Origin: Thermoanaerobaculia bacterium
Lineage (GTDB): Bacteria; Acidobacteriota; Thermoanaerobaculia; UBA5066
Assembly (NCBI GenBank): GCA_038245905.1
Contig: JBBRRY010000037.1
Coordinates: forward strand, 1 to 33,551
Reading direction: 5' to 3'
DNA length: 33,551 nucleotides
The first letter of the stretch is position 1, and each line of letters begins with the position of its first letter. Shown here piece after piece: positions 4,960 to 18,812 of this stretch. The translations under genes were made by a program, and so were the position numbers. Under the pieces are notes generated by a model. It was not told where the DNA came from and ran no database searches. It was given only the letters and a program-made list of their open reading frames with translations.

Positions 4960-6543
4960 TCAGAAACGAATCGAAAGGAGAAAGCGGCCTTCGACGGTTC
5001 GCCCTCTTTCGTCCCGCGCCGCCTTGTAGCGGTTGCGCGCGACTGCCTCGAGGGCGATCGCGTCGCAGTCGGCGGACGCAGAGGAGATCACACGCCTGCT
5101 CTTGAGGCTGCCGTCCTCTCCAACAACGAGAGAGACGCCGACGACCTTGCCGCCGCAAGCACGCTCCTGCGCGGCCGTCAGGGAGATCGTCGCCTCCTCC
5201 GCGACGTCCGGGGGCGTCCTGGCGTGTCGGGTGACGTCCGGCGGTGGCGCCGTCCTGGCAAGCGCTGGGGCGCGCGTCGGAGCCTCGCGGGGGAGTCGCG
5301 TGGGCGCCGGAAGGGCAGTCGGCCTCGCGACGGTCACGAGGGTGGGCACCGCCGTGGGTGCGGGGGCGGTCGAAACGGCGAGCGGAGCGGCCGTAGCGGT
5401 CATGGTGGCGGTAGCGGCCCGAGCGGGAGCGGGTGTCTGCGCGGGTGTCGGAACGGGCGTCGCGACTGGCGCCGGAGCGCGCGTCAGGAACCATCCGCCC
5501 GCGAGGACGGCGACGACGGCGACGATGAGTCCGGCGATGGCCGGCCAGAGCCAGGCCGGGCGCCTGGTCGGCACGGGAGCGCGGGAGGGGAAGGCCGGGG
5601 GCTCATCGGGCGCGCGTGCCGGGCGCGGGACCGCCTCGGGCCGCGCCGGCGCGGCCGGGCTCTCGCTGGAAATCGCGCGCGCTCGCGTAGTCCTGGGGTG
5701 CACCTCGGCGAGGAACGCTTCGAGGTCGTCCCGCATTTCGGCGGCGTTCGCGTAGCGCGCGTCCCGATCCCTCTCGAGAGATCGAGAGACGATGCGTTCG
5801 ATCTCGGGGTGGATGCCCGCACGCTTCGTGGAGAGCCGCGGAGCTTCCTCGGTGAGACGCCGCGCGAGGGCCGACATGTTCTCCGTGCGGTACGGGATGA
5901 CCCCGGCGAGGAGCTGGAACAGCGTGACGCCGAGCGAGTAGACGTCCGTGCGCCCGTCCAGCGGCTGGCCGCGGAGCTGCTCGGGAGACAGATAGGCCGG
6001 CGAGCCGAGAATGAAGCCGGTCTGCGTCTTCACGAGGCTCTCGCCGATCTTCGCGATGCCGAAGTCCATCAGGTACGGCCGCCCGCGCTTGTCGAGAAGA
6101 ACGTTGTCGGGCTTGATGTCGCGATGGACGACGCCGAGCGCATGGCTGTAGTCCAGGGCGTCGAGGAGCGGAACCACGATCCGCGCCGCCGCCTCCGCGT
6201 CGAACGTGCCGCGCTTCGCGAGCTCCTCACTGAGGGAGGGTCCGTCCACGAACTGCATCGAGTACCAGAGCATTCCTTCGACGTGGCCGAAGTCGTAGAC
6301 CTTTACGATGCTCGGATGCTCGAGCGAGGCCGCTACGCGCGCCTCCTGACGGAATCGTCGCGCGAAGTCCGAGTCCTTTCCGTGCGATTCGTGCAGGACC
6401 TTGAGGGCCTCGAAGCGCTCGAGGCTCGTGCTCCTCACCTGATACACGGAGGCGAATCCGCCGCGTCCCAGGAAGCCGAACACTTCATAGCGGTCGCCGA
6501 GGAGCTTCTCCACCATCCGGCCGCGATCGTCGACGGGCTGCAC
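4960..6543 (-). CDS. Hanks-type Ser/Thr kinase - TM - Pro/Thr/Ala linker - TonB C-terminal-like domain (paralog 1)
   Basis: GRGGFA, ALK, HRDIKPDN, DFG, SPE; TM WLWPAIAGLIVAVVAVLAGGWFL; C-terminal VGVSLVVGEDGSL...ALEAVARNRYKAARDERGRTV...SIRF resembles TonB_C. Confidence 0.9.
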   Translation of the reverse strand: MQPVDDRGRMVEKLLGDRYEVFGFLGRGGFASVYQVRSTSLERFEALKVLHESHGKDSDFARRFRQEARVAASLEHPSIVKVYDFGHVEGMLWYSMQFVDGPSLSEELAKRGTFDAEAAARIVVPLLDALDYSHALGVVHRDIKPDNVLLDKRGRPYLMDFGIAKIGESLVKTQTGFILGSPAYLSPEQLRGQPLDGRTDVYSLGVTLFQLLAGVIPYRTENMSALARRLTEEAPRLSTKRAGIHPEIERIVSRSLERDRDARYANAAEMRDDLEAFLAEVHPRTTRARAISSESPAAPARPEAVPRPARAPDEPPAFPSRAPVPTRRPAWLWPAIAGLIVAVVAVLAGGWFLTRAPAPVATPVPTPAQTPAPARAATATMTATAAPLAVSTAPAPTAVPTLVTVARPTALPAPTRLPREAPTRAPALARTAPPPDVTRHARTPPDVAEEATISLTAAQERACGGKVVGVSLVVGEDGSLKSRRVISSASADCDAIALEAVARNRYKAARDERGRTVEGRFLLSIRF

Positions 6544-6581: not shown

Positions 6582-7451
6582 GTGACGACTCTTACGCTCC
6601 TCGTGGATGCGGACCCGAGCCTCGAGACGGTGGGACTCGACGTCGACGACGACCTCGCGCTCCTCTTCCTCCTCGGATCGCCCGAAGTGGCTCTCCGCGG
6701 TGTCACGACGGTGTTCGGAAATTCGTGGGGCGCCCTCACGCATCTTTCCGCCCGGCGTACGCTCCGGCGCGCGGGACGTGGCGATGTGCCCGTGGTCCGT
6801 GGCGCGGACGCGCCGCGCGACGCGGCCGGCGCGAGGCGCGCGGGCGAGGCGCTCCTTCGCTCCGTTCGGGCACATCCGGGCGCAACGCTTCTCACGCTGG
6901 GGCCGCTCACGAACGTGGCGGCCGCGGCGGACGATCCGGAGTTCGGTGCCCGCCTCGGCGCCCTCGTCGTGATGGGAGGCCGGTTGACGAACGCCGAGTC
7001 GGACTTCAACGTCCGGAAAGACCCGGCCGCGGCGGCCCGCGTCCTCGCGCTCGCCTGTCCGAAGACGTTCGTGACGTTCGATCTCGGCCTCGGGATCGCG
7101 ATCACGCCGGGCGATACGGATGCGCTCTCTGCCGATCCCGCGAGCGCCGTTTCGCGCCGGCGAGGGCGGCTCAAGAGCTTCGCGCGACTGAAGAGAACCT
7201 GGCGGGCGCTTCACGCCGGAGCGCCGGGCGAGGCGGCGGGTGGATTCCACCCGTGGGACGTTCTCGCGGCCGCGGCGGTCACGCACCCCGGACTCTTCGA
7301 ATTTACCGCGGAATCCATCGCGTTCGACGCGCGGGGGCGGACGCACCTCGGACGAGCGGACGGCACCGCCGTCTCGATGACGGCCTCCGTGGACGCGGAC
7401 GGCTTTCGCGCGCTCTTTCTCTCGCGGATCGCGGCCCCGAGGAGTCAGTAG
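6582..7451 (+). CDS. Nucleoside hydrolase (IU-NH family)
   Basis: LLVDAD...DVDDDLAL, VTTVFGN, LGPLTN, VMGG, DFNVRKDP, HPWD. GTG 6582 preferred over ATG 6549 because it gives the usual N-terminal length and follows a -10-like hexamer. Confidence 0.85.
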   Translation: MTTLTLLVDADPSLETVGLDVDDDLALLFLLGSPEVALRGVTTVFGNSWGALTHLSARRTLRRAGRGDVPVVRGADAPRDAAGARRAGEALLRSVRAHPGATLLTLGPLTNVAAAADDPEFGARLGALVVMGGRLTNAESDFNVRKDPAAAARVLALACPKTFVTFDLGLGIAITPGDTDALSADPASAVSRRRGRLKSFARLKRTWRALHAGAPGEAAGGFHPWDVLAAAAVTHPGLFEFTAESIAFDARGRTHLGRADGTAVSMTASVDADGFRALFLSRIAAPRSQ

Positions 7452-9010
7452 CGGACAGAGATCGTGAGTCGCCCTTCGACGGGCCGGTCGTGCTCGTCTC
7501 TCTCGGCGCGGAAGCGATAGCGCGATACGGCGTCGAGGGCAACGCCGTCACATGCCGCCCCCGCGCTCGAGATGACGCGACTGCTCTTCAGGCTTCCGTC
7601 TGCGGCCACGACCACCGTGATGCCGACCGTCTTCCCGCCGCACGTGTCCGCGAGCGACAGAGGGATGTCGACGACCGCCTCTTCCTCCACATCGGCCCGA
7701 ACCCGAGGAACCCGAGGGATGGATGCTCCATCGGAGGTGGAGGCGGCAGCAGGAGCCGGCTTCGTGCCGCGAACTGCCGCCGTGGTGCGGGCCGGTGCCG
7801 GAGACGGCGCCGGGGTCGAAGTCGAAGCGGCGGCCGGCGCGACCGCGGTCGTGGGCGCCGGAGTCGCCGGAGCGGGAGGGCGCAGTCCTGGCGTCTCTTC
7901 TTTCGCGCGCCTCTGCATGACGGAGGCGTAGACCAGGGCGCCGAGGACGAGCGCGACGCCCGCGGCGAGCCAGCGGGCTCCGCGCATCGGACGGCGAGCG
8001 ATTGGAAGGTTCGCCTTTGCGCCTCGGGGAGCCCTCGCTCCGGCGGAGGCCGCGGCGGAGGAAAGAACGCTCGTGCCGCCACCTGTGTCTTCGGCCGGGG
8101 AGGGAGACGCTGGACCGGCCCCGACTCGCGGCATGGCGCCCGAACGCGACCGCGCGGGCGCGCCGCTCGCGTCGAGGAATGCCTCGAGCGCGGCGCGCAT
8201 CTCCGCCGCCGTCGCGAACCGGTTCTCGCGCTCGCGAGCGAGCGCTTTGAGGACGATGCGCTCGAGCTCGGGCGCGAGGTCGTGCGCCTTGGCCGACGGT
8301 GGCTCGGGGTCTTCCGTGAGGCGCCGGGTCATGGTCGCGATGCGGTCGTCCGACCGGAACGGGATTTCTCCTGTGAGCATCTGGTAGAGCGTGACGCCGG
8401 CCGCGTAGAGATCGCTGCGCCCGTCGAGCGAATGTCCGCGAAGCTGCTCGGGCGAGAGATAGCCCGGCGTGCCCAGGATCTTGCCCTCCGCCGTCTCCTG
8501 CACGTCGTCGTCCTGCTTCACGATTCCAAAGTCCATGAGGTAAGGGCGTTCGTCCGCGTCGAGAATGATGTTGTCCGGCTTGACGTCGCGGTGTACGACG
8601 CCGCCCCGATGGACGACCTCGAGCGCCTCGAGGAGAGGCACGAGCAGCCCCGCCGCGTCCCCGCCGAGCATCCGGCCATGGCGTTCGAGCCGCGCCCTGA
8701 GCGTCGGCCCGTCGACGAACTGCATCGAATACCAGAACGTCCCGCTCGCATTCCCGAAGTCGTAGACGCGCACGACGTTCGGGTGCTCGAGCGACGCCGC
8801 GATGCGCGCCTCGCGCTCAAAACGCGCCGCAAACTTCGGATCGCTGCCCCGGGCCTCGAAAAGAACCTTAAGCGCTTCCACGCGGTCCAGCCGAAGATTT
8901 CGCACGCGATAGACGGCCGCGAATCCACCCTGCCCGAGAAAGCCCTCGAAGGCGTAGCGATCCTTGAGCCGCGCCTCCACGGCGCGCCCGCGTTCGTCCA
9001 GCGGAAGCAC
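7445..9010 (-). CDS. Hanks-type Ser/Thr kinase - TM - Pro/Ala linker - TonB C-terminal-like domain (paralog 2)
   Basis: GQGGFA, ALK, HRDVKPDN, DFG, GTPGYLSPE; TM WLAAGVALVLGALVYASVM; C-terminal VGITVVVAADGSL...ALDAVSRYRFRAERDEHDRPV...SVRY. Confidence 0.9.
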   Translation of the reverse strand: MLPLDERGRAVEARLKDRYAFEGFLGQGGFAAVYRVRNLRLDRVEALKVLFEARGSDPKFAARFEREARIAASLEHPNVVRVYDFGNASGTFWYSMQFVDGPTLRARLERHGRMLGGDAAGLLVPLLEALEVVHRGGVVHRDVKPDNIILDADERPYLMDFGIVKQDDDVQETAEGKILGTPGYLSPEQLRGHSLDGRSDLYAAGVTLYQMLTGEIPFRSDDRIATMTRRLTEDPEPPSAKAHDLAPELERIVLKALARERENRFATAAEMRAALEAFLDASGAPARSRSGAMPRVGAGPASPSPAEDTGGGTSVLSSAAASAGARAPRGAKANLPIARRPMRGARWLAAGVALVLGALVYASVMQRRAKEETPGLRPPAPATPAPTTAVAPAAASTSTPAPSPAPARTTAAVRGTKPAPAAASTSDGASIPRVPRVRADVEEEAVVDIPLSLADTCGGKTVGITVVVAADGSLKSSRVISSAGAACDGVALDAVSRYRFRAERDEHDRPVEGRLTISVRY

Positions 9011-11836: not shown

Positions 11837-12073
11837 CTAAGCCGACCGGGATTCGCGTCGAATCACGAGGACCGCTCCGGCCGCAAGGGCCCACGGGACG
11901 AGCATGAAAAGGCCGATGAGCGGCCAGATGTTCGGGTCCTTCGGCGAGGCGGACCCGGCGCACGACGGGCACGCCATCGCGTCCCCGGCAAGGAGGACGG
12001 CGGCGAAGCCGATCGAGAGGAGGGTTGCGCGGACAGCCGGTCTCATGAGTGCCTTTAGTTCCATTCGTGCCAC
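11837..12073 (-). CDS. Small exported CxxC membrane protein, last gene of oxidase operon
   Basis: Signal-like stretch ending AMA, then CPSC, then one TM helix; 7 nt downstream of subunit IV. Start uncertain (12073, 12064 or 12046). Confidence 0.65.
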   Translation of the reverse strand: MARMELKALMRPAVRATLLSIGFAAVLLAGDAMACPSCAGSASPKDPNIWPLIGLFMLVPWALAAGAVLVIRRESRSA

Positions 12074-12080
12074 TCGTGCC

Positions 12081-12443
12081 TCAGTGGTGCGCCCAGGGAA
12101 CCGGCACGCCCCGGAGGAGGTTGAAGGCGTCGAGCATGAGGAACACAGCGTAGAAGCCCGCCAGTGGCAACGGCAGGAACGCGAGCCACTGGAGCGATCG
12201 CTTCTCGTATTTCAGGTGCATGTAGTAGAGGCCGACGAACGACGCCTTCGAAAGCGCAAGCGCGATCATGACGGCCGAGATGATTCGCTTGTCGATCTTC
12301 ATGTACGAGACGCCGACCTCGAGAAGCGTGAGGACGAGGAGCACCCAGAAGATCCGGAAGTAGTCGCGCCGGTGGTCGGCGACCGGGACGTCCGAATCGG
12401 GGGCGGCGGCGTGGGGCAGCGGAGTCGTCGCGTGTTCGGTCAT
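12081..12443 (-). CDS. ctaF: Cytochrome c oxidase subunit IV family protein
   Basis: YFRIFWVLLVLTLLEV and KASFVGLYYMHLKYE motifs; 3 TM; operon context. Confidence 0.85.
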   Translation of the reverse strand: MTEHATTPLPHAAAPDSDVPVADHRRDYFRIFWVLLVLTLLEVGVSYMKIDKRIISAVMIALALSKASFVGLYYMHLKYEKRSLQWLAFLPLPLAGFYAVFLMLDAFNLLRGVPVPWAHH

Positions 12444-12453
12444 GCGAGCCTCT

Positions 12454-13068
12454 TCAGGGAATGAGGTAGACGAGCGTGAAGACGAGGATCCAGATGAGGT
12501 CGACGAAGTGCCAGAAGAGCCCCGTGATCTCGACGAAGTTCGCGCCGTTCTCGAGGTGCTTGCCGCGCCACACGCCGAACGCCGTGATGAGGAGGTAGCA
12601 GACGCCCGTGAAGACGTGGGCGCCGTGGAAGCTCGTGATCACGTAGAACGTCGCGGGGAAATTTCCGGAAGGCAGCGTGAAGCCCTCGTGGATCAGGTGG
12701 CGATACTCGTACACCTGTCCGAACAGGAAGAGGATGCCGCCGCCCGCCGTCGCGACGAGCCACTTCACCGCGCCGAGCCGGTTAGCCCTCTTGGCGTCGT
12801 CCAGCGCCAGGACCATCGTCAGGGAGCTGACGATGAGGACGAACGTCATGACGGCCGTGAACGGGATGCCGAGGACGCTCGTCGGCGCGGGCCATTCCTT
12901 GTTGCCCGCGCGGAGGATTCCGTAGGCCGTGAGGAGACCGCCGAAGGTCATCGCGTCCGTGACGAGGAAGACCCACATCCCCACCTTGCCCGTCGTCGCG
13001 GCGCCGAAAGTGGGCTCCGCATGTGGAGCCGATACCGGGGTGTACGTGGCCTCAGGACGAGCGCTCAT
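12454..13068 (-). CDS. ctaE: Heme-copper oxidase subunit III (CoxP-like, second copy)
   Basis: KVGMWVFLVTDAMTF, FYVITSFHGAHV, GLFWHFVDLIWI. Confidence 0.9.
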   Translation of the reverse strand: MSARPEATYTPVSAPHAEPTFGAATTGKVGMWVFLVTDAMTFGGLLTAYGILRAGNKEWPAPTSVLGIPFTAVMTFVLIVSSLTMVLALDDAKRANRLGAVKWLVATAGGGILFLFGQVYEYRHLIHEGFTLPSGNFPATFYVITSFHGAHVFTGVCYLLITAFGVWRGKHLENGANFVEITGLFWHFVDLIWILVFTLVYLIP

Positions 13069-13695
13069 TCACAGTCCTTCCATGTTCACGAGGAGTCCGG
13101 TGTCGCGCATCATAAGGTCGATCTCTTCGGGCGACGGCGCTCCGATGCGCCGGATGCGGCCGCGGGTGTCCACGAGAAGGAGCCGGCCGGCGAGCGTGCC
13201 CCCCTCGGGCGCATGAAGCGCCTTCAGGGTGGCGGCCTCCAGCGGCTTGACGTCCCCTCCCGCGAGCGTCCAGCGCCAGGCGCCGGCTCCGGCGTTCTTC
13301 GCGAGGGTGGCGAGCGTTTCGGAATCCGGCGCCCCGGAGACGAAGCTCACGAGGTGGACCGCCTCGCCGGTGTTACGCACGCGCCGCTGCAGCTTCGCGA
13401 GAGGGGAGCCCTTGGCGGCGACCGCTTCCGCGGAGGTGAACTCGAGGAAGACGAGATGTCGCCTAAGGTCGGTCTCGCGGACAGGATTGCCGGCCTGGTC
13501 CACGAGTGCGAAAGCGGGAAACGTGCCGAGGACGGGCGGTGCGGGCGGCAGGGCCCGCCGGACCGACCGGACGAGCGGCACCGTGAACACGGCCGCCACG
13601 AACAGCGCCCAGAACCACGGGCTGCCGGTGAGCCGTGCGGCAACGCGCTGCGGGAAGGCAGCCCTGATGTCGCCGGGAACGAGAGACGCGCTCAA
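13069..13695 (-). CDS. SCO/SenC-like thioredoxin-fold protein lacking copper ligands
   Basis: TM anchor, PAFALVDQAGNPV...DL, LAKLQ, WTLAGG and LLLVDTRGRIR match the SCO scaffold; the CxxxC position reads FTSAEAVA and the protein has no Cys. TTG start. Confidence 0.75.
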   Translation of the reverse strand: MSASLVPGDIRAAFPQRVAARLTGSPWFWALFVAAVFTVPLVRSVRRALPPAPPVLGTFPAFALVDQAGNPVRETDLRRHLVFLEFTSAEAVAAKGSPLAKLQRRVRNTGEAVHLVSFVSGAPDSETLATLAKNAGAGAWRWTLAGGDVKPLEAATLKALHAPEGGTLAGRLLLVDTRGRIRRIGAPSPEEIDLMMRDTGLLVNMEGL

Positions 13696-13758: not shown

Positions 13759-14703
13759 TTAATTCGTCTTCGTGTCCCCGTGCGAGGCGGCCAGCTCCGC
13801 GACGAGCTTCGCTCGGCGCGCATCCGCCGCCGGCGTGCCCTTGATGTCGATGAGCGAGCGCACGTAGTACGCCATCGCCCAGATGTCGTCGTCGGGGAGG
13901 GCGCCCTTCCACGTGGGCATGGCCGTGCCGCCGATGCCGGCCGCGATCGTGCGATAGAAGTCCTCGAGGGTCTCGCCCGAGCGGACGTGATCGCGCGTGA
14001 AGTCCGGCGGCATCAGCTTGTAGCCGTAGTCGCTGTCTTTCATCTCGGAGTGGTACGCGTCCGGGCGCAGCGTCGCCTCGCGCTTCGACAGCTCCAGGCT
14101 CGCCGCGTTGATCGTCTCCTTCGTCTCGTACGCCGGGTGGCACGACAGGCATTGCGCCATGCCGTGGTAGACCTTCATCCCGCGCGTGACCGCTTCGGCC
14201 TTCCGCTCCGCGCCCCACGGATCGGGGCCCGGGACGATCGGCTCGCCAGGCGTCTTTTCCGCCCACTTCGGTGAGAGCGTCTTGATGTACTGGACGATGT
14301 CCATGATCTCCCGCTTCGGGACGTCCTTCCAGGGAAGCATCGCGGTGCCGTGGAGGCCCATCTGGATGGTGTTCAGGAAATCGTTGTCGTTCGGCAGCTG
14401 TCCGCTGGACACCGCCGCGAACTTGAACTGGCCCTTCGTGAAGTTCCGCGGCGGGGGACGGAGGCCGATCGCGGCCGGGCCCTTTCCGTCGCCCTTCATG
14501 CCGTGGCACGCGGAGCAGTACGTGACGTAAAGGTGCTCGCCGCTGTTCAACCGTCGAGCCGAGACTTTCTTGCCTCCGAGCGTCATCGTCTTGGTGAAGG
14601 TCCGGCCCGGGCCGGAGCATCCGGTGCTGCCCGCTAGGGCTGCCGCGATCGCCGTTGCGACCCAAATCGTTCCGGCGTCGATTTTCATCCGTCCGACCTT
14701 CAT
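13759..14703 (-). CDS. Di-heme c-type cytochrome, probable lipoprotein
   Basis: CSACH and CLSCH, each followed by PPxxFT...GxxGTAM (distal Met); lipobox-like STGC. Start ATG 14703 (or 14688), not 14919, which overlaps the upstream gene. Confidence 0.88.
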   Translation of the reverse strand: MKVGRMKIDAGTIWVATAIAAALAGSTGCSGPGRTFTKTMTLGGKKVSARRLNSGEHLYVTYCSACHGMKGDGKGPAAIGLRPPPRNFTKGQFKFAAVSSGQLPNDNDFLNTIQMGLHGTAMLPWKDVPKREIMDIVQYIKTLSPKWAEKTPGEPIVPGPDPWGAERKAEAVTRGMKVYHGMAQCLSCHPAYETKETINAASLELSKREATLRPDAYHSEMKDSDYGYKLMPPDFTRDHVRSGETLEDFYRTIAAGIGGTAMPTWKGALPDDDIWAMAYYVRSLIDIKGTPAADARRAKLVAELAASHGDTKTN

Positions 14704-14731: not shown

Positions 14732-15322
14732 TCAAACGAGATAAACGGCGACGAACATGACGAGCCAGACGACGTCGACGAAGTGCCAGAACATGGCCGA
14801 GACCCGCACGGCGCTCGAGCGGCCGGAGGTATACCGCCCCGAGAACGCGCCGGGGAGGAGATAGGCGAGCGCGAGGAGCCCCGCGAGGACGTGGAGCGCG
14901 TGGAACACGGTGAGGCCATAGAAGATCGACCCGTAGGTTCCCGTGTTGTCGATCCGGAATCCGCCCTGCCAGAGCGGGATCCACACGGCGAGCTGCAACG
15001 CGAGGAAGAGGATTCCGAGCCCCATCGTTCCGAGGAGAGCGCGCCGGAGCGTGCCGGGTCTCGTTTCCGCTTGTGGGCGCGTGCCGTGGTGGAGAAAGAC
15101 GCTGGATGCGAGAAGGACGAGCGTGTTCAGGAAGGGGAGCGCTTTCGGAAGCGGCGCGAGGCCATCCGGAGGCCATGTCGCGGCGTTCAGCCGGAGGACC
15201 GCATACGAAAAGAAGAGTGCGACGAAGAGCATCGTCCACGACGCGAGCGCCATCACCATCCCGACGAACGAGGTCCGCCGAGACTCTGCGGCATTGGTAA
15301 AGCTCGCGGCCGCGACGCTCAC
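14732..15322 (-). CDS. ctaE: Heme-copper oxidase subunit III (CoxO-like, first copy)
   Basis: GMVMALASWTMLF, NTLVLLASS, YGSIFYGLTVFHALHV, WHFVDVVW; GTGA overlap with subunit I. Confidence 0.9.
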   Translation of the reverse strand: MSVAAASFTNAAESRRTSFVGMVMALASWTMLFVALFFSYAVLRLNAATWPPDGLAPLPKALPFLNTLVLLASSVFLHHGTRPQAETRPGTLRRALLGTMGLGILFLALQLAVWIPLWQGGFRIDNTGTYGSIFYGLTVFHALHVLAGLLALAYLLPGAFSGRYTSGRSSAVRVSAMFWHFVDVVWLVMFVAVYLV

Positions 15323-17076
15323 AAATCGTCGCCGATCGGCTCATCCTGTGCGAGCCAGTCCTTGCCCACGACGGCGGGATTGTTGAACTCGTGGGGACCG
15401 TGCAGGACGACCGGAATCTCGTCGAAGTTGTGGTGCGGCGGCGGGGAGGGGATCGTCCATTCGAGTGTGCCGACCTCCCACGGGTTCTCGCTGGCCTTCT
15501 TGCCCGAGATCATGCTCGAGAGGAAGTTCGCGACGAAGAGGAACTGAGAGGCGCCAAGGAGCAGCGCGGCGCGCGTGATCCACACGTTCACGGGATGGAG
15601 ATGCTTGAGAAACTCGTAGGCCTGGTAGTTGTAAAGCCGGCGCTGCATCCCGGCGTAGCCCACGACGAGCATCCCGCAGAAGACGACGGTGATCGGCACG
15701 ATCGTGAGCCAGAAGTGCCACTTGCCGAGCGTCTCGTTCATCATTTTCCCGAACATCTTCGGGAACCAGAAGTAGATCGCCGCGAACGCGCCGAGCAGCA
15801 CCGAGGCCGCCATCGTGAGGTGGAAGTGGCCGATCACGAAGTACGAGTCGTGGAGGTAGATGTCGGACGAGATCGCGCCGAGGTGGAGGCCCGTGAGGCC
15901 GCCGAGGCCGAACACGAACACGACGCCGACCGCGAAGAGCATGGGCGTTGCGAAGCGGATGGAGCCCCGCCACATCGTCCCGAGCCAGTTCAGGAAGAAC
16001 ACGGCGGACGGTATCGAGATGAGCATCGTGAGCGTCATGAACCCCTGAGAGAGAAGAGGGCTCATGCCGACGACGAACATGTGGTGCCCGTACACGACCA
16101 TCGAGAGCAGGCAGATGACGCTCATCGAGAGCGCCGTCGCCTTGTAGCCGAACGCGGGCTTGCGCGAGAAGAACGACAGGAGGTCGGACACGATGCCCCA
16201 CGCGGGCAGGATGAGGATGTAGACCTCCGGGTGGCCGAAGATCCAGAAGAGGTGCTGGTAGAGGACCGGATCGCCACCGCCCTTCGTGATCGCGGCGCCG
16301 GCGAGGAAGAAGTGGCTGCCGAAGACGCGGTCGAGGAAGAGCAGGAGAACGCCCGCCGCCAGAACCGGGACGAACAGGGCGTTGAGGATCGCGGTGAGCC
16401 AGATTCCCCAGACGGAGAGCGGCATCTGGAAATAGCCCATGCCGGGGGCGCGCAGGCGCACGACCGTCGTGATGTAGTTGACGGCGCCCATGATCGAGGC
16501 GCTTCCCGTCAGGAAGATGCCGAGAACCCAGAGGGTCTGGCCGTGCCCTGGCGAGCCCACGAGAGTCGAGAGCGTCGGATAGGACTGCCAGCCGCCCGCG
16601 GCCGCGCCCATCGGGACGAAGAACGAGACCACCATGCAGAGTCCGGCGAGGACGTTCGTCCAGAACGACATGAGGTTGAGCGTGGGGAACGCCATGTCCC
16701 TCGCGCCGATCATGAGGGGGATGAGCAGGTTCCCGAACGCGCCGATCAGGATCGGCGTGATCGCGAAGAAGATCATGAGCGTGCCGTGCATCGTGAAGAA
16801 CGCCGCGTACGACTGCGGCGGCATCACGCCGCCGCTCTGCGGCCACATGAGCTGGCCGAGCACGGGGAAGGCGGTGCCGGGATACGCGATCTGCCAGCGA
16901 ATCATCATCGCCATGACGCCGCCCATGGCGAGGAAGAAGAGGCCGTACCAGAGGAACTGTTTCGCGATGACCTTGTGGTCGAACGAGAAGATGTATTTCG
17001 CGAGGAACGAGGTCGGCTCGGGATGGATGTGCTGTTCGGCGTGGAAGTCGGGCCCGACGTGAAGGTGCCTCGTCAC
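15319..17076 (-). CDS. ctaD: Heme-copper oxygen reductase subunit I, A1-like
   Basis: DHKVI, TMHG, DMAFPTLN, WIFGHPEVY, GHHM, HDSYFVIGHFH, GMQRR. Likely start GTG 17076 overlapping the subunit II stop (TAGTG). Confidence 0.95.
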   Translation of the reverse strand: MTRHLHVGPDFHAEQHIHPEPTSFLAKYIFSFDHKVIAKQFLWYGLFFLAMGGVMAMMIRWQIAYPGTAFPVLGQLMWPQSGGVMPPQSYAAFFTMHGTLMIFFAITPILIGAFGNLLIPLMIGARDMAFPTLNLMSFWTNVLAGLCMVVSFFVPMGAAAGGWQSYPTLSTLVGSPGHGQTLWVLGIFLTGSASIMGAVNYITTVVRLRAPGMGYFQMPLSVWGIWLTAILNALFVPVLAAGVLLLFLDRVFGSHFFLAGAAITKGGGDPVLYQHLFWIFGHPEVYILILPAWGIVSDLLSFFSRKPAFGYKATALSMSVICLLSMVVYGHHMFVVGMSPLLSQGFMTLTMLISIPSAVFFLNWLGTMWRGSIRFATPMLFAVGVVFVFGLGGLTGLHLGAISSDIYLHDSYFVIGHFHLTMAASVLLGAFAAIYFWFPKMFGKMMNETLGKWHFWLTIVPITVVFCGMLVVGYAGMQRRLYNYQAYEFLKHLHPVNVWITRAALLLGASQFLFVANFLSSMISGKKASENPWEVGTLEWTIPSPPPHHNFDEIPVVLHGPHEFNNPAVVGKDWLAQDEPIGDDL

Positions 17077-17828
17077 TACTGCACCCACTCCCATCCCCAG
17101 AGCTGTTCCTTGTCGGCCGGATCGAACCGGCGCTTCGCGTCGCCTTCGGCTTCAGACATCCACCGCCGGAAATCGGCCTCCGGCTGCACGATGAGGTCGC
17201 CCTTCATCTGGTAGTGCGCCCAGCCGCACATCTGCGAGCACGCAATCTCGAAATTGCCCGGCTGGACGGCCTGAAACCAGGTGCGTGTCACGTTGCCGGG
17301 GTTCGCGTCGTGCTTCAGCCGGAAGTTCGGGATGTAGAAGCTGTGGATGACGTCCTTCGCCTTCAGATTCAGCATCACCGGCCGTCCGACGGGCACGCGC
17401 ATCTCGTTCAGTGTGACGACGTCGTCGGCCGTGTTGAAGATGCCGTCGGGCCCCGCGTACCGGATGTTCCACGCCCACTGCTGCGGCATGACTTCGATCC
17501 TCACGGTGTCGGGCGATACGGGCCAGTTGTAGGTGTACTCCTTGACGTCGGCCTGAGACACCCTCACGAGATTCATGTCGATCGTCACGAAGACGAGGGC
17601 CGCGAGGACGCCCGTGACGAGGAAGCTCTTGCGGTCGGTCCCATGCGTGTACAGCGCTTTGACGCCCGGCCGCGCGCGGTACTTCCACGAGGAATAGACG
17701 AGCGCGAACGTGACGAGCGCAAACGCGATCACGCACATGAGCGTCGTGTACCAGAACAGGGCTTCCGCCCGGTATCCGTCCCGCGAGACGTCCACGGTCG
17801 TCAACCAGGAAAAGGGCCATTGGTGCAT
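17076..17828 (-). CDS. ctaC: Cytochrome c oxidase subunit II (CuA)
   Basis: Two TM; QQWAWNIRY; DVIHSF; CSQMCGWAHYQM CuA motif; SD GAGGGG; no fused cytochrome c domain. Confidence 0.93.
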   Translation of the reverse strand: MHQWPFSWLTTVDVSRDGYRAEALFWYTTLMCVIAFALVTFALVYSSWKYRARPGVKALYTHGTDRKSFLVTGVLAALVFVTIDMNLVRVSQADVKEYTYNWPVSPDTVRIEVMPQQWAWNIRYAGPDGIFNTADDVVTLNEMRVPVGRPVMLNLKAKDVIHSFYIPNFRLKHDANPGNVTRTWFQAVQPGNFEIACSQMCGWAHYQMKGDLIVQPEADFRRWMSEAEGDAKRRFDPADKEQLWGWEWVQ

Positions 17829-18190: not shown

Positions 18191-18496
18191 TCAGGGCGTG
18201 ACCCGCCTGGGTCTCTTCCCATAACGGCCGATGTCGTCGTGCTTGACGATGTCGAGGAAGAAAACGGTCCCGCCTTCGAAACGGAAGGTCACACGGTCAC
18301 CGCTATTGATGCGCGCTTCGAAGTAGTACTTCTCGGGCTGGATCGGCTTCACCCGAAGGCCTGACGAGAACTCCCTCTTGATGAGCGCCATCGCAGTCTG
18401 GTCGCAGAGTCGCTGGCGATCGCCGCTAAGGGCCGCGTATGCCTGCTTCCAATCCTCGGACCAAACGGCCTGGAGAAAAGTCTGCTTGCCGGCCAC
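18191..18496 (-). CDS. RelE/ParE-superfamily-like toxin (type II TA)
   Basis: 101 aa, basic; WSEDWKQAY...FEARINSGDRVTF...FLDIVKHDDI fits a RelE-fold pattern; 4 nt downstream of an AbrB-type gene. Confidence 0.6.
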   Translation of the reverse strand: MAGKQTFLQAVWSEDWKQAYAALSGDRQRLCDQTAMALIKREFSSGLRVKPIQPEKYYFEARINSGDRVTFRFEGGTVFFLDIVKHDDIGRYGKRPRRVTP

Positions 18497-18500
18497 GCTC

Positions 18501-18812
18501 TTACTTGCGCCGCACTCCGGGGCGCCTCTTCAGTCCGTCCAGGAACGCCTTCGCTTCTTCGGGAGTCCTCGTCGTTGCGGCTCCGCCCGCCGCCAGGCTC
18601 GCCTCGGCCTTCCTGATTCGCTCCTGCATTTTGGGGTGGTAGAACCAGAGCTGGTCCTTGGGGATGAGAGCCGCGGGCACGAGCTCGAACGTTCCGCGCT
18701 CGGTCCGCTCGAGAATGATGAGGTCACCGGCCTCGACGCCGAGGGCCGTGCGGACATCTTCGGGCAGAGTTGCCCGTCCCTTCTTGTCCAGTGTGACGAA
18801 TGCCGAGCTCAT
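18501..18812 (-). CDS. AbrB/MazE/SpoVT-family antitoxin
   Basis: VTLDKKGRATLPEDVRTALGVEAGDLI swapped-hairpin signature; C-terminal DQLWF...QERIRKAEASLAAG. Confidence 0.85.
   Translation of the reverse strand: MSSAFVTLDKKGRATLPEDVRTALGVEAGDLIILERTERGTFELVPAALIPKDQLWFYHPKMQERIRKAEASLAAGGAATTRTPEEAKAFLDGLKRRPGVRRK

Follow-up and report, generated by a model that had tools for sequence, protein, structure and literature searches.

In textbook models of the A-family haem-copper oxidases, the lysine of the K proton path is essential for reducing the oxygen-binding site. An oxidase gene pair without this lysine therefore raises the question of whether the encoded enzyme can still reduce O2 and, if so, along which route protons would reach its active site. 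Such a pair, coxB and coxA, is carried by the stretch of DNA analysed here (the window), which comprises 33,551 nucleotides of a Thermoanaerobaculia bacterium (Acidobacteriota; GenBank assembly GCA_038245905.1, contig JBBRRY010000037.1, positions 1 to 33,551). With a probability of about 0.85, the enzyme is predicted to be a working O2 reductase from a conserved A1-type subfamily that lacks the K-channel lysine. The genes and codons in question are as follows:

17076..17828, minus strand: coxB, subunit II, 250 amino acids, with two transmembrane helices and a CuA cupredoxin domain (PF00116)
15319..17094, minus strand: coxA, subunit I, 591 amino acids, A1-type (HPEVY), with 12 transmembrane helices (PF00115, 467.5 bits)
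15997..15999, minus strand: codon of Phe366 in CoxA, at the position of the K-channel lysine (R. sphaeroides K362), by alignment
17625..17627, minus strand: codon of Ser68 in CoxB, which replaces the entry glutamate of the K-channel (HMMER alignment)

An initial annotation of this DNA had claimed that subunit I keeps all six histidine ligands, the HPEVY motif, the D-channel residues and the HD and RR motifs. All of these were found: FTMHG at position 100 (His103), GAFGN at 118, DMAFPTLN at 133, GAVN at 203, GHPEVY at 287 (His288, Glu290, Tyr292), YGHH at 335 (His337, His338), LHD at 414 (His415, Asp416), GHFH at 422 (His423, His425) and MQRR at 483 (Arg485, Arg486). Two substitutions that it had named, Phe for the K-channel lysine (codon 15997-15999) and YGHH for WAHH, were likewise recovered, the former as Phe366 within IPSAVFF (361) in the HMMER alignment and the latter as Tyr335 in place of the Trp ahead of the CuB histidine pair. 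HMMER comparison of CoxA with PDB chains matched 59 distinct sequences (best 8hcr_F, E 1.4e-122), and since helix VIII ('ipsavFflnw') pairs ungapped with its mycobacterial counterpart ('vptgiKffnw'), the K-channel lysine is Phe in CoxA. The AlphaFold model of CoxA (predicted local distance difference test score of 92.1) contains 12 long transmembrane helices, the first starting from residue 40. A Foldseek comparison with the PDB confirmed the family fold, with target-normalised template modelling scores of 0.92-0.96 against A-type chains including R. sphaeroides and bovine subunit I (0.92 with a root-mean-square deviation of 2.3 for R. sphaeroides 1m56_A). Judging from this model, an alternative structural register is not likely.

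The second replacement lies in subunit II, where the entry glutamate (E101 in R. sphaeroides and E78 in P. denitrificans, in the numbering given by the literature consulted) had been reported as Ser. HMMER aligned the CoxB segment 'hgtdrkSflvt' with 'hgndrlEvvwt' of the Thermus caa3 oxidase (2yev_B), which puts Ser68, immediately preceded by Lys67, at this position. The N-terminal alignment with R. sphaeroides CoxB was weak (domain E 4.2) and shifted by one residue, and anchoring it on the conserved Thr that follows this motif left the assignment of Ser68 unchanged. The CuA ligands are retained (His162 and CSQMCGWAHYQM; pattern H..., C-x3-C-x3-H-x2-M). Within the CuA loop, Gln199 (17232-17234, minus strand) gives CSQMC in place of the usual C-x-E-x-C, whose Glu bridges CuA and the Mg site; CSQMC is shared by the whole Thermoanaerobaculia lineage and also occurs in one locus that keeps the subunit I lysine (L094), while the other members of the clade described below carry CAEMC or CAELC. 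A further peculiarity of CoxB is a five-residue insertion in its second transmembrane helix (83-87) relative to lysine-retaining sisters, in which Asp84 (17577-17579, minus strand) is invariant (47/47 of the lysine-less rows).

Both replacements are shared by many relatives. Among the query and the best 120 homologues of 8000 scored database candidates (67-94% identity), position 366 was occupied by Phe in 109 cases, by Leu in 12 and by Lys in none; the objection that close homologues might all retain the lysine is thereby answered. Coupled change was counted in the query and 80 related genome loci. Rows with Lys in subunit I (K-type) had Glu in subunit II in 18 cases, with one alignment gap and one CoxB not recovered, i.e. 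Lys was paired with Glu only, in 18/18 readable rows. In the rows without the lysine (K-less), the subunit I/subunit II pairs were Phe/Ser (22), Leu/Asp (14), Phe/His (9), Phe/Tyr (2) and Ile/Gln (1), and CoxB was not recovered in 13; position 68 of subunit II was polar in 48/48 rows, never Glu and never hydrophobic. A clade under purifying selection in which the Lys to Phe and Glu to Ser changes co-occur, the existence of which had been proposed as a check, was thus found in these 81 rows: the pairwise ratio of nonsynonymous to synonymous substitution rates (dN/dS) was below 1 for both genes, at 0.05-0.26 for coxA and 0.06-0.40 for coxB against 14 loci of the same class.

The K-less proteins around the query were monophyletic in two trees, with a local support of 100 (20 rows; FastTree, 124 representatives) and a Shimodaira-Hasegawa-like approximate likelihood ratio test value of 100 (15 rows; IQ-TREE quick, 62 representatives). 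According to database labels, this clade includes Acidobacteriota, Myxococcota, Bdellovibrionota (Bacteriovoracaceae and Halobacteriovoraceae), Planctomycetota and Omnitrophota. Well-supported branches of the representative tree require at least four changes between the K and non-K states. Given these changes and the K-less lineages already published, the lysine is less close to invariant in the A family than the initial annotation stated.

Decay of a paralogue, a one-off mutation and an error in sequencing or assembly were considered as alternatives. In line with decay, the same genome holds a canonical oxidase, and the coxA orthologue is split in a few relatives: in genome G006 it falls into two hits (contig C13, 127787-129525), in locus L054 it forms a short open frame, and in locus L070 it consists of several tblastn pieces. 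These split copies represent either frameshifts or assembly errors. Against it, the 11/11 same-genus loci read share the helix VIII, YGHH and LPAWG motifs and also that of subunit II, save for one conservative position in the latter, and 21 of the 24 same-genus genomes have an orthologue (81-98% identity). It was unmatched in G012 and G019 (74% and 82% complete, respectively), and in G013 (97% complete) the canonical oxidase alone was matched with the coxA query. The reading frames are intact, dN/dS is well below 1, the change is matched in two genes, and the clade extends across several phyla, all of which agrees with the earlier claim of an evolved variant and excludes decay, an error or a one-off mutation with near certainty. 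Outside the genus, the other families of the window's order have, at another locus, a K-retaining A1 oxidase that is ~52% identical (11 regions were read, one from each of 11 genomes out of 16), and among the genomes searched the K-less operon occurs within the order only in the window's genus. Because the sister families hold their K-type enzyme at another locus, the K-less operon is regarded as a separate, patchily distributed gene family. Divergence in situ from the sister K-type locus was considered and rejected: the flanking SMC and M16 genes were not found within ~11 kb of it, and the gene order differs.

The residues of the catalytic core were then compared between 60 K-less rows and 20 rows of K-type sisters. 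The six histidine ligands of haem a, haem a3 and CuB (103, 288, 337, 338, 423 and 425) are present in 60/60 K-less rows, as are the cross-link Tyr292 and the helix-VI Glu290 of HPEVY. The D-channel is complete, with Asp133, Asn122 and Asn140 in 58/60 rows (the other two being gaps), Asn206 in 60/60 and Ser200 in 53/60; we take these to correspond to Asp132, Asn121, Asn139, Asn207 and Ser201 of R. sphaeroides. Arg485 (59/60) and Arg486 (60/60) and the Mg-site residues His415 (60/60) and Asp416 (59/60) are also kept. With regard to the A1 subtype, the six histidines, the Tyr and Glu of HPEVY, the D-channel, CuA and the 12-helix fold all conform, and the K-channel lysine together with the subunit II entry glutamate does not (Phe366, Ser68). 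A clade-specific Lys, Arg, His or Glu that might compensate for the loss within subunit I was not found at a conservation of at least 80%.

This active site bears on one of the options put forward in the initial annotation, namely that the enzyme may act on another substrate (H2O2 or NO). It would then be a cytochrome c peroxidase or an NO reductase and could dispense with protons from the K-path. Laboratory K362M mutants retain peroxide-driven turnover, which would suit such a shift, and the genome of the window encodes other enzymes able to serve O2 respiration: a canonical A2-type caa3 oxidase on contig C76 (YSHPAVY, with the lysine kept, and with a subunit II that has the Glu and a fused cytochrome c) and a bd oxidase. 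The site itself, however, is that of an O2 reductase, with the three CuB histidines, the cross-link Tyr and the helix-VI Glu in 60/60 rows. In the known haem-copper NO reductases (cNOR, qNOR, eNOR, sNOR, gNOR and nNOR) the Tyr cofactor is absent or the ligand set is altered (PMC11214002); by this standard the window enzyme, which retains Tyr292 and the three CuB histidines, has the active site of an O2 reductase and not of an NO reductase. A separate qNOR is already present in the genome (contig C25), and an intact pumping D-channel would be pointless in a detoxifying enzyme. Moreover, all five Bacteriovoracaceae genomes searched (metagenome-assembled genomes of unstated completeness) encode the K-less enzyme and no other A-family COX1; three of the five also encode a fused cbb3 CcoNO. 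The genome of the window has, for its part, haem A synthase and two ActD genes of alternative complex III. The proposed change of substrate therefore found no support and is considered improbable.

With respect to expression, contigs from four metatranscriptome runs (four studies), 88-99% alike, map on coxA and coxB, and three of them cover the region of codon 366 (X15, 15938-16497; X17, 15883-16141; X18, 15689-16096). As presence in an RNA library is not proof of transcription, these contigs are weak evidence for the expression of close relatives, and no conclusion attaches to the parts of the window that they leave uncovered.

If the enzyme does reduce O2, the protons of the reductive phase have to be delivered without the lysine, and the residues that surround the former K-path are informative in this respect. 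The following codons mark positions at which K-less and K-type proteins differ consistently:

16198..16200, minus strand: Trp299, helix VI, seven residues past the cross-link Tyr292 (K-less, Trp in 60/60; K-type, Met in 19 and Phe in 1)
16135..16137, minus strand: Thr320, helix VII, equivalent to R. sphaeroides M316 (K-less, Thr in 53, Ser in 4 and Gln in 3; K-type, Met in 18)
16090..16113, minus strand: stretch of helix VII from Cys328 to Tyr335, by alignment
16015..16017, minus strand: Ser360, helix VIII (K-less, Ser in 60/60; K-type, Ala in 17 and Gly in 3)

In the helix VII stretch, position 328 (Cys in the window) is Thr in 41, Cys in nine and Ser in eight of the K-less rows, compared with Ala in 16 K-type rows; Ser331 is fixed in the former (60/60), where the latter have Gly (18), and Tyr335 (58/60) replaces a Trp found in all 20 K-type rows. 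Residues at the bottom of the channel are retained in K-less rows (Asp304 in 60/60, Asn369 in 58/60 and Ser303 in 51/60), whereas in other, independent K-less lineages Ser303 is kept in just 15/35. Published R. sphaeroides K-channel residues include Y288, S299, T359, K362, S365, H96 (subunit II) and E101 (subunit II), and in the same molecular dynamics study channel width was measured as the M316-K362, P358-A319 and P315-S365 distances (PMC9687966). From the ungapped offset of +4 and the M316-K362 width pair, it follows that Thr320 would face the former lysine across the channel, and by sequence correspondence with that study Thr320 and Ser323 are placed on the channel wall. The Lys/Met pair has thus become a Phe/Thr pair, with more hydroxyls above it that reach toward the CuB histidines, and for this reason the channel region is read as rebuilt and not abandoned. 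Changes were also noted off the K-path, on helix V (16372-16383, minus strand), where Asn238 (60/60; Val in six and Gln in six K-type rows, with others including Leu) and Phe241 (60/60; Ala in 19 K-type rows) are fixed.

The loss of the K-channel, as claimed initially, is accordingly borne out as far as its lysine and glutamate are concerned, while the gained hydroxyls and the polar position in subunit II suggest that loss is too simple a description. In the mechanism that we propose, the enzyme would be a D-channel-pumping CuA/haem-copper cytochrome c oxidase that receives electrons from a dihaem cytochrome c of its own operon. The textbook K-path of helix VIII lysine and subunit II glutamate would have been rebuilt rather than simply lost, the relay being formed by the hydroxyls of Thr320, Thr/Ser/Cys328, Ser331, Tyr335 and Ser360, with a polar entry residue in subunit II (Ser in the window). 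Together with bound water, these hydroxyls would pass the protons of the reductive phase on to the Tyr/CuB site with no lysine involved, much as in the B family, where the K-path analogue of oxidases such as Thermus ba3 consists of Ser, Thr and Tyr and has no lysine. That a hydroxyl and water relay stands in for the lysine is put at somewhat short of an even chance. Still slightly more tentative is the wider proposition that a large, cross-phylum A1 subfamily exchanged its lysine for a hydroxyl relay of helices VII and VIII and so, with its D-channel still complete, arrived convergently at the solution of the B family. The B-family enzymes themselves are distant in sequence (E ~1e-13 for Thermus ba3, against 1e-122 for A-type chains) and have no D-channel, whereas that of the window enzyme is intact.

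Several observations weigh against this reading. The placement of the hydroxyls rests on an ungapped alignment, helical periodicity and the channel pairs given in PMC9687966. In the AlphaFold model DSSP breaks helix VII at 331-334, so the argument that residues 331 and 335 lie on one face is approximate. The equivalent of Thr359 is Ser in just 38/60 K-less rows (Ala in 13 and Gly in nine), and in the distant half of the clade (nine representatives) Thr or Ser occupies position 320 in five and Ser331 is present in six. The test for convergence was not significant, with only six independent K/non-K contrasts: Ser or Thr at 360 accompanied the loss of the lysine in a mean of 3.6 contrasts against 0.0 in the opposite direction (median p 0.125), and Ser331 showed no convergence signal (1.9 versus 0.5 contrasts). 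Both subunits score below the NCBIfam equivalog cut-offs, CoxA with 586.4 bits for TIGR02891 (CtaD_CoxA; cut-off 670.75) and CoxB with 143.4 bits for TIGR02866 (cut-off 147.7). Finally, the bulky hydrophobic residues Phe366, Phe367 and Trp299 lie mid-channel and could just as well reflect a plugged channel.

Such a plug would define a different enzyme, in which the K-path is closed by Phe366, Phe367 and Trp299 and all protons, both chemical and pumped and also those required for reduction of the binuclear centre, pass through Asp133 to Glu290, i.e. a D-channel-only oxidase that would be the mirror image of the B- and C-family enzymes, which use solely a K-analogue. The mid-channel hydrophobics are invariant or nearly so in the clade (Trp299 in 60/60, Phe367 in 59/60, and Phe, Leu or Ile at 366 in 60/60), as are Glu290 and the D-channel residues, and haem-copper oxidases with a single proton channel provide a precedent (PMC11214002, Fig. 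1 legend). We regard this explanation as the main rival of the relay, but as less likely. It leaves unexplained why five or six hydroxyl gains should be fixed right around an abandoned channel, why position 68 of subunit II should be polar in 48/48 rows and why Asp304, Asn369 and Ser303 should still be conserved, when other K-less lineages do drop Ser303. In laboratory K362M mutants, furthermore, the binuclear centre cannot be reduced through the D-channel. A hydroxyl relay accounts for the fixed polar residues and is therefore preferred.

Part of the clade may have found a different, acidic answer to the missing lysine. A sub-branch formed by Planctomycetota and some Myxococcales (loci L046, L055-L068, L072, L074 and L075) carries Glu364 on helix VIII, within 'P(A/G)EI(L/F)F'. 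In its Planctomycetota members with a recovered CoxB, position 68 of subunit II is Asp, and database homologues with Glu364 often have a His at 372 as well ('NWLHT').

K-less A-family oxidases as a phenomenon are already known, since the Degli Esposti papers describe a matching two-subunit change in other lineages. In acidophilic Fe(II)-oxidisers and relatives such as Thioclava, COX1 has a hydrophobic residue, e.g. Ile, in place of the lysine (P. denitrificans K354), and the subunit II glutamate (E78) is substituted non-conservatively, while the D-channel is kept (10.1101/2020.03.01.968255); this preprint terms such K-less COX 'a rare case'. The later paper sorts K-channel variants in a supplementary figure and, in a supplementary table, distinguishes about twenty subclades of bacterial COX1; it also considers repeated K-channel losses in archaeal family-A oxidases, under a scenario that is subsequently rejected there (PMC8239418). 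The window enzyme resembles these K-less COX, including the archaeal ones, in all three features. It differs from them in type, theirs being A2-type and basal with one or two extra N-terminal transmembrane helices, as opposed to A1-type with 12 helices and none extra, and in genetic context, as they belong to rus-like operons (rusticyanin, Cyc1/Cyc2) and Pfam identified no such genes in the operon of the window. The signature of Trp299, Thr320, Ser331, Tyr335 and Ser360 belongs to the present clade, with its neutrophilic Acidobacteriota, Myxococcota, Bdellovibrionota, Planctomycetota and Omnitrophota. The clade is set apart by this signature, its A1 type, the lack of extra N-terminal helices and its different operon. 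The main texts of the Degli Esposti papers do not mention the phyla of the clade in connection with the K-channel, although their supplementary tables may list it. In the literature found, these papers were the sole precedent for K-less A-family enzymes, and no biochemical work on the clade was encountered.

With the canonical A1 aa3 oxidases (1M56, 1AR1/1QLE and mycobacterial CtaD) the window enzyme shares the fold (template modelling scores of 0.92-0.94), ~38-41% identity over the Foldseek alignments, the redox ligands, the Tyr-His site, the helix-VI Glu, the D-channel, the Mg site and CuA. It is unlike them in lacking the K-path lysine and subunit II glutamate, in the change from Trp to Tyr before the CuB histidine pair and from Phe or Met to Trp on helix VI, in its two subunit III-like genes and in scoring under the NCBIfam equivalog cut-offs. 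The K-retaining sister A1 oxidases (from Acidobacteriota, Gemmatimonadota, Planctomycetota and others) are 48-54% identical to it and read 'PSAIKTFNW' in helix VIII and 'HGNxxLEIIWT' in subunit II, retaining the lysine, the equivalent of Met316, the Trp before HH, the equivalent of Ala360 and the subunit II glutamate. Several of the K-type sister loci, like the window, carry two COX3-like genes and COX4. NCBI records label clade members "cbb3-type cytochrome c oxidase subunit I", a misnomer for an A-family enzyme that should serve as a warning to annotators.

The clade is of interest because a conserved and probably expressed family does without the lysine deemed essential and has a definable group of replacements that evolved together. 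Its members include enzymes of predators that can be cultured (the loci bear the label Bacteriovorax stolpii), in which it is apparently the sole aa3-type oxidase. As culturable carriers exist, the enzyme is worth biochemical testing. Should the proposed mechanism be true, these organisms would offer a natural, culturable test bed, and the lysine would be one of several solutions for gating reductive-phase proton delivery.

The oxidase genes belong to an eight-gene cluster on the minus strand that runs from coxB (17076-17828) to the gene for a CPSC-motif membrane mini-protein (11837-12073). Downstream of coxB and coxA it contains:

14732..15322, minus strand: coxC, short five-helix subunit III, 196 amino acids (PF00510)
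13759..14703, minus strand: dihaem cytochrome c, 314 amino acids (CSACH and CLSCH), with an N-terminal signal or anchor and a possible lipobox
13069..13695, minus strand: SCO-like thioredoxin-fold protein without both cysteines of CxxxC (PF02630, 20.4 bits, below the cut-off)
12454..13068, minus strand: second subunit III-like protein, 204 amino acids (PF00510)
12081..12443, minus strand: subunit IV, COX4_pro, caa3 subunit IV subfamily (TIGR02229, 43.5 bits, above the cut-off of 37.25)
11837..12073, minus strand: open reading frame (ORF) for a membrane mini-protein of 78 amino acids with a CPSC motif, at the end of the cluster

A Pfam scan of the eight ORFs returned only COX1, COX2, COX3 (twice), COX4, cytochrome c and a weak SCO match. 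The order coxB-coxA-coxC, dihaem cytochrome c, SCO-like gene, second COX3 and COX4 is kept across phyla; the dihaem cytochrome c is present in 56/59 K-less loci, most of which also have COX4, the SCO-like gene and both COX3-like genes. The dihaem cytochrome c, whose start is ATG 14703, preceded by a purine-rich stretch, is likely the dedicated electron donor to the oxidase. Two subunit III-like genes are also found in the operon of the CoxMNOP-type alternative aa3 oxidase (Bradyrhizobium), which the window operon resembles in having two PF00510 genes (14732-15322 and 12454-13068).

The SCO-like protein (13069-13695, minus strand) has lost its copper-site cysteines and reads 'FTSAEAVAA' at this point. 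Within the K-less clade, every locus from Thermoanaerobaculia or Planctomycetota shows this loss, while the Bdellovibrionota and Myxococcota members retain the canonical CxxxCP; four ordinary SCO genes are located elsewhere in the window's genome. The CPSC mini-protein had no family match in Pfam or NCBIfam and is conserved among Thermoanaerobaculia loci, with 36-85% identity.

Downstream of the cluster, on the same strand, lie genes for an M16 peptidase and two Ser/Thr protein kinases (4960-6543 and 7445-9010, minus strand), each of the kinases having a C-terminal TonB_C domain. Upstream, two small ORFs are followed by one of 1197 amino acids, which we take, from its sequence, to be SMC-like. 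The two small ORFs, of 101 and 103 amino acids, have overlapping ends (18191-18812, minus strand) and separate the SMC-like gene from the oxidase operon. The start of the second presumably resembles an antitoxin of the AbrB/SpoVT type, and the two may constitute a putative toxin-antitoxin pair.

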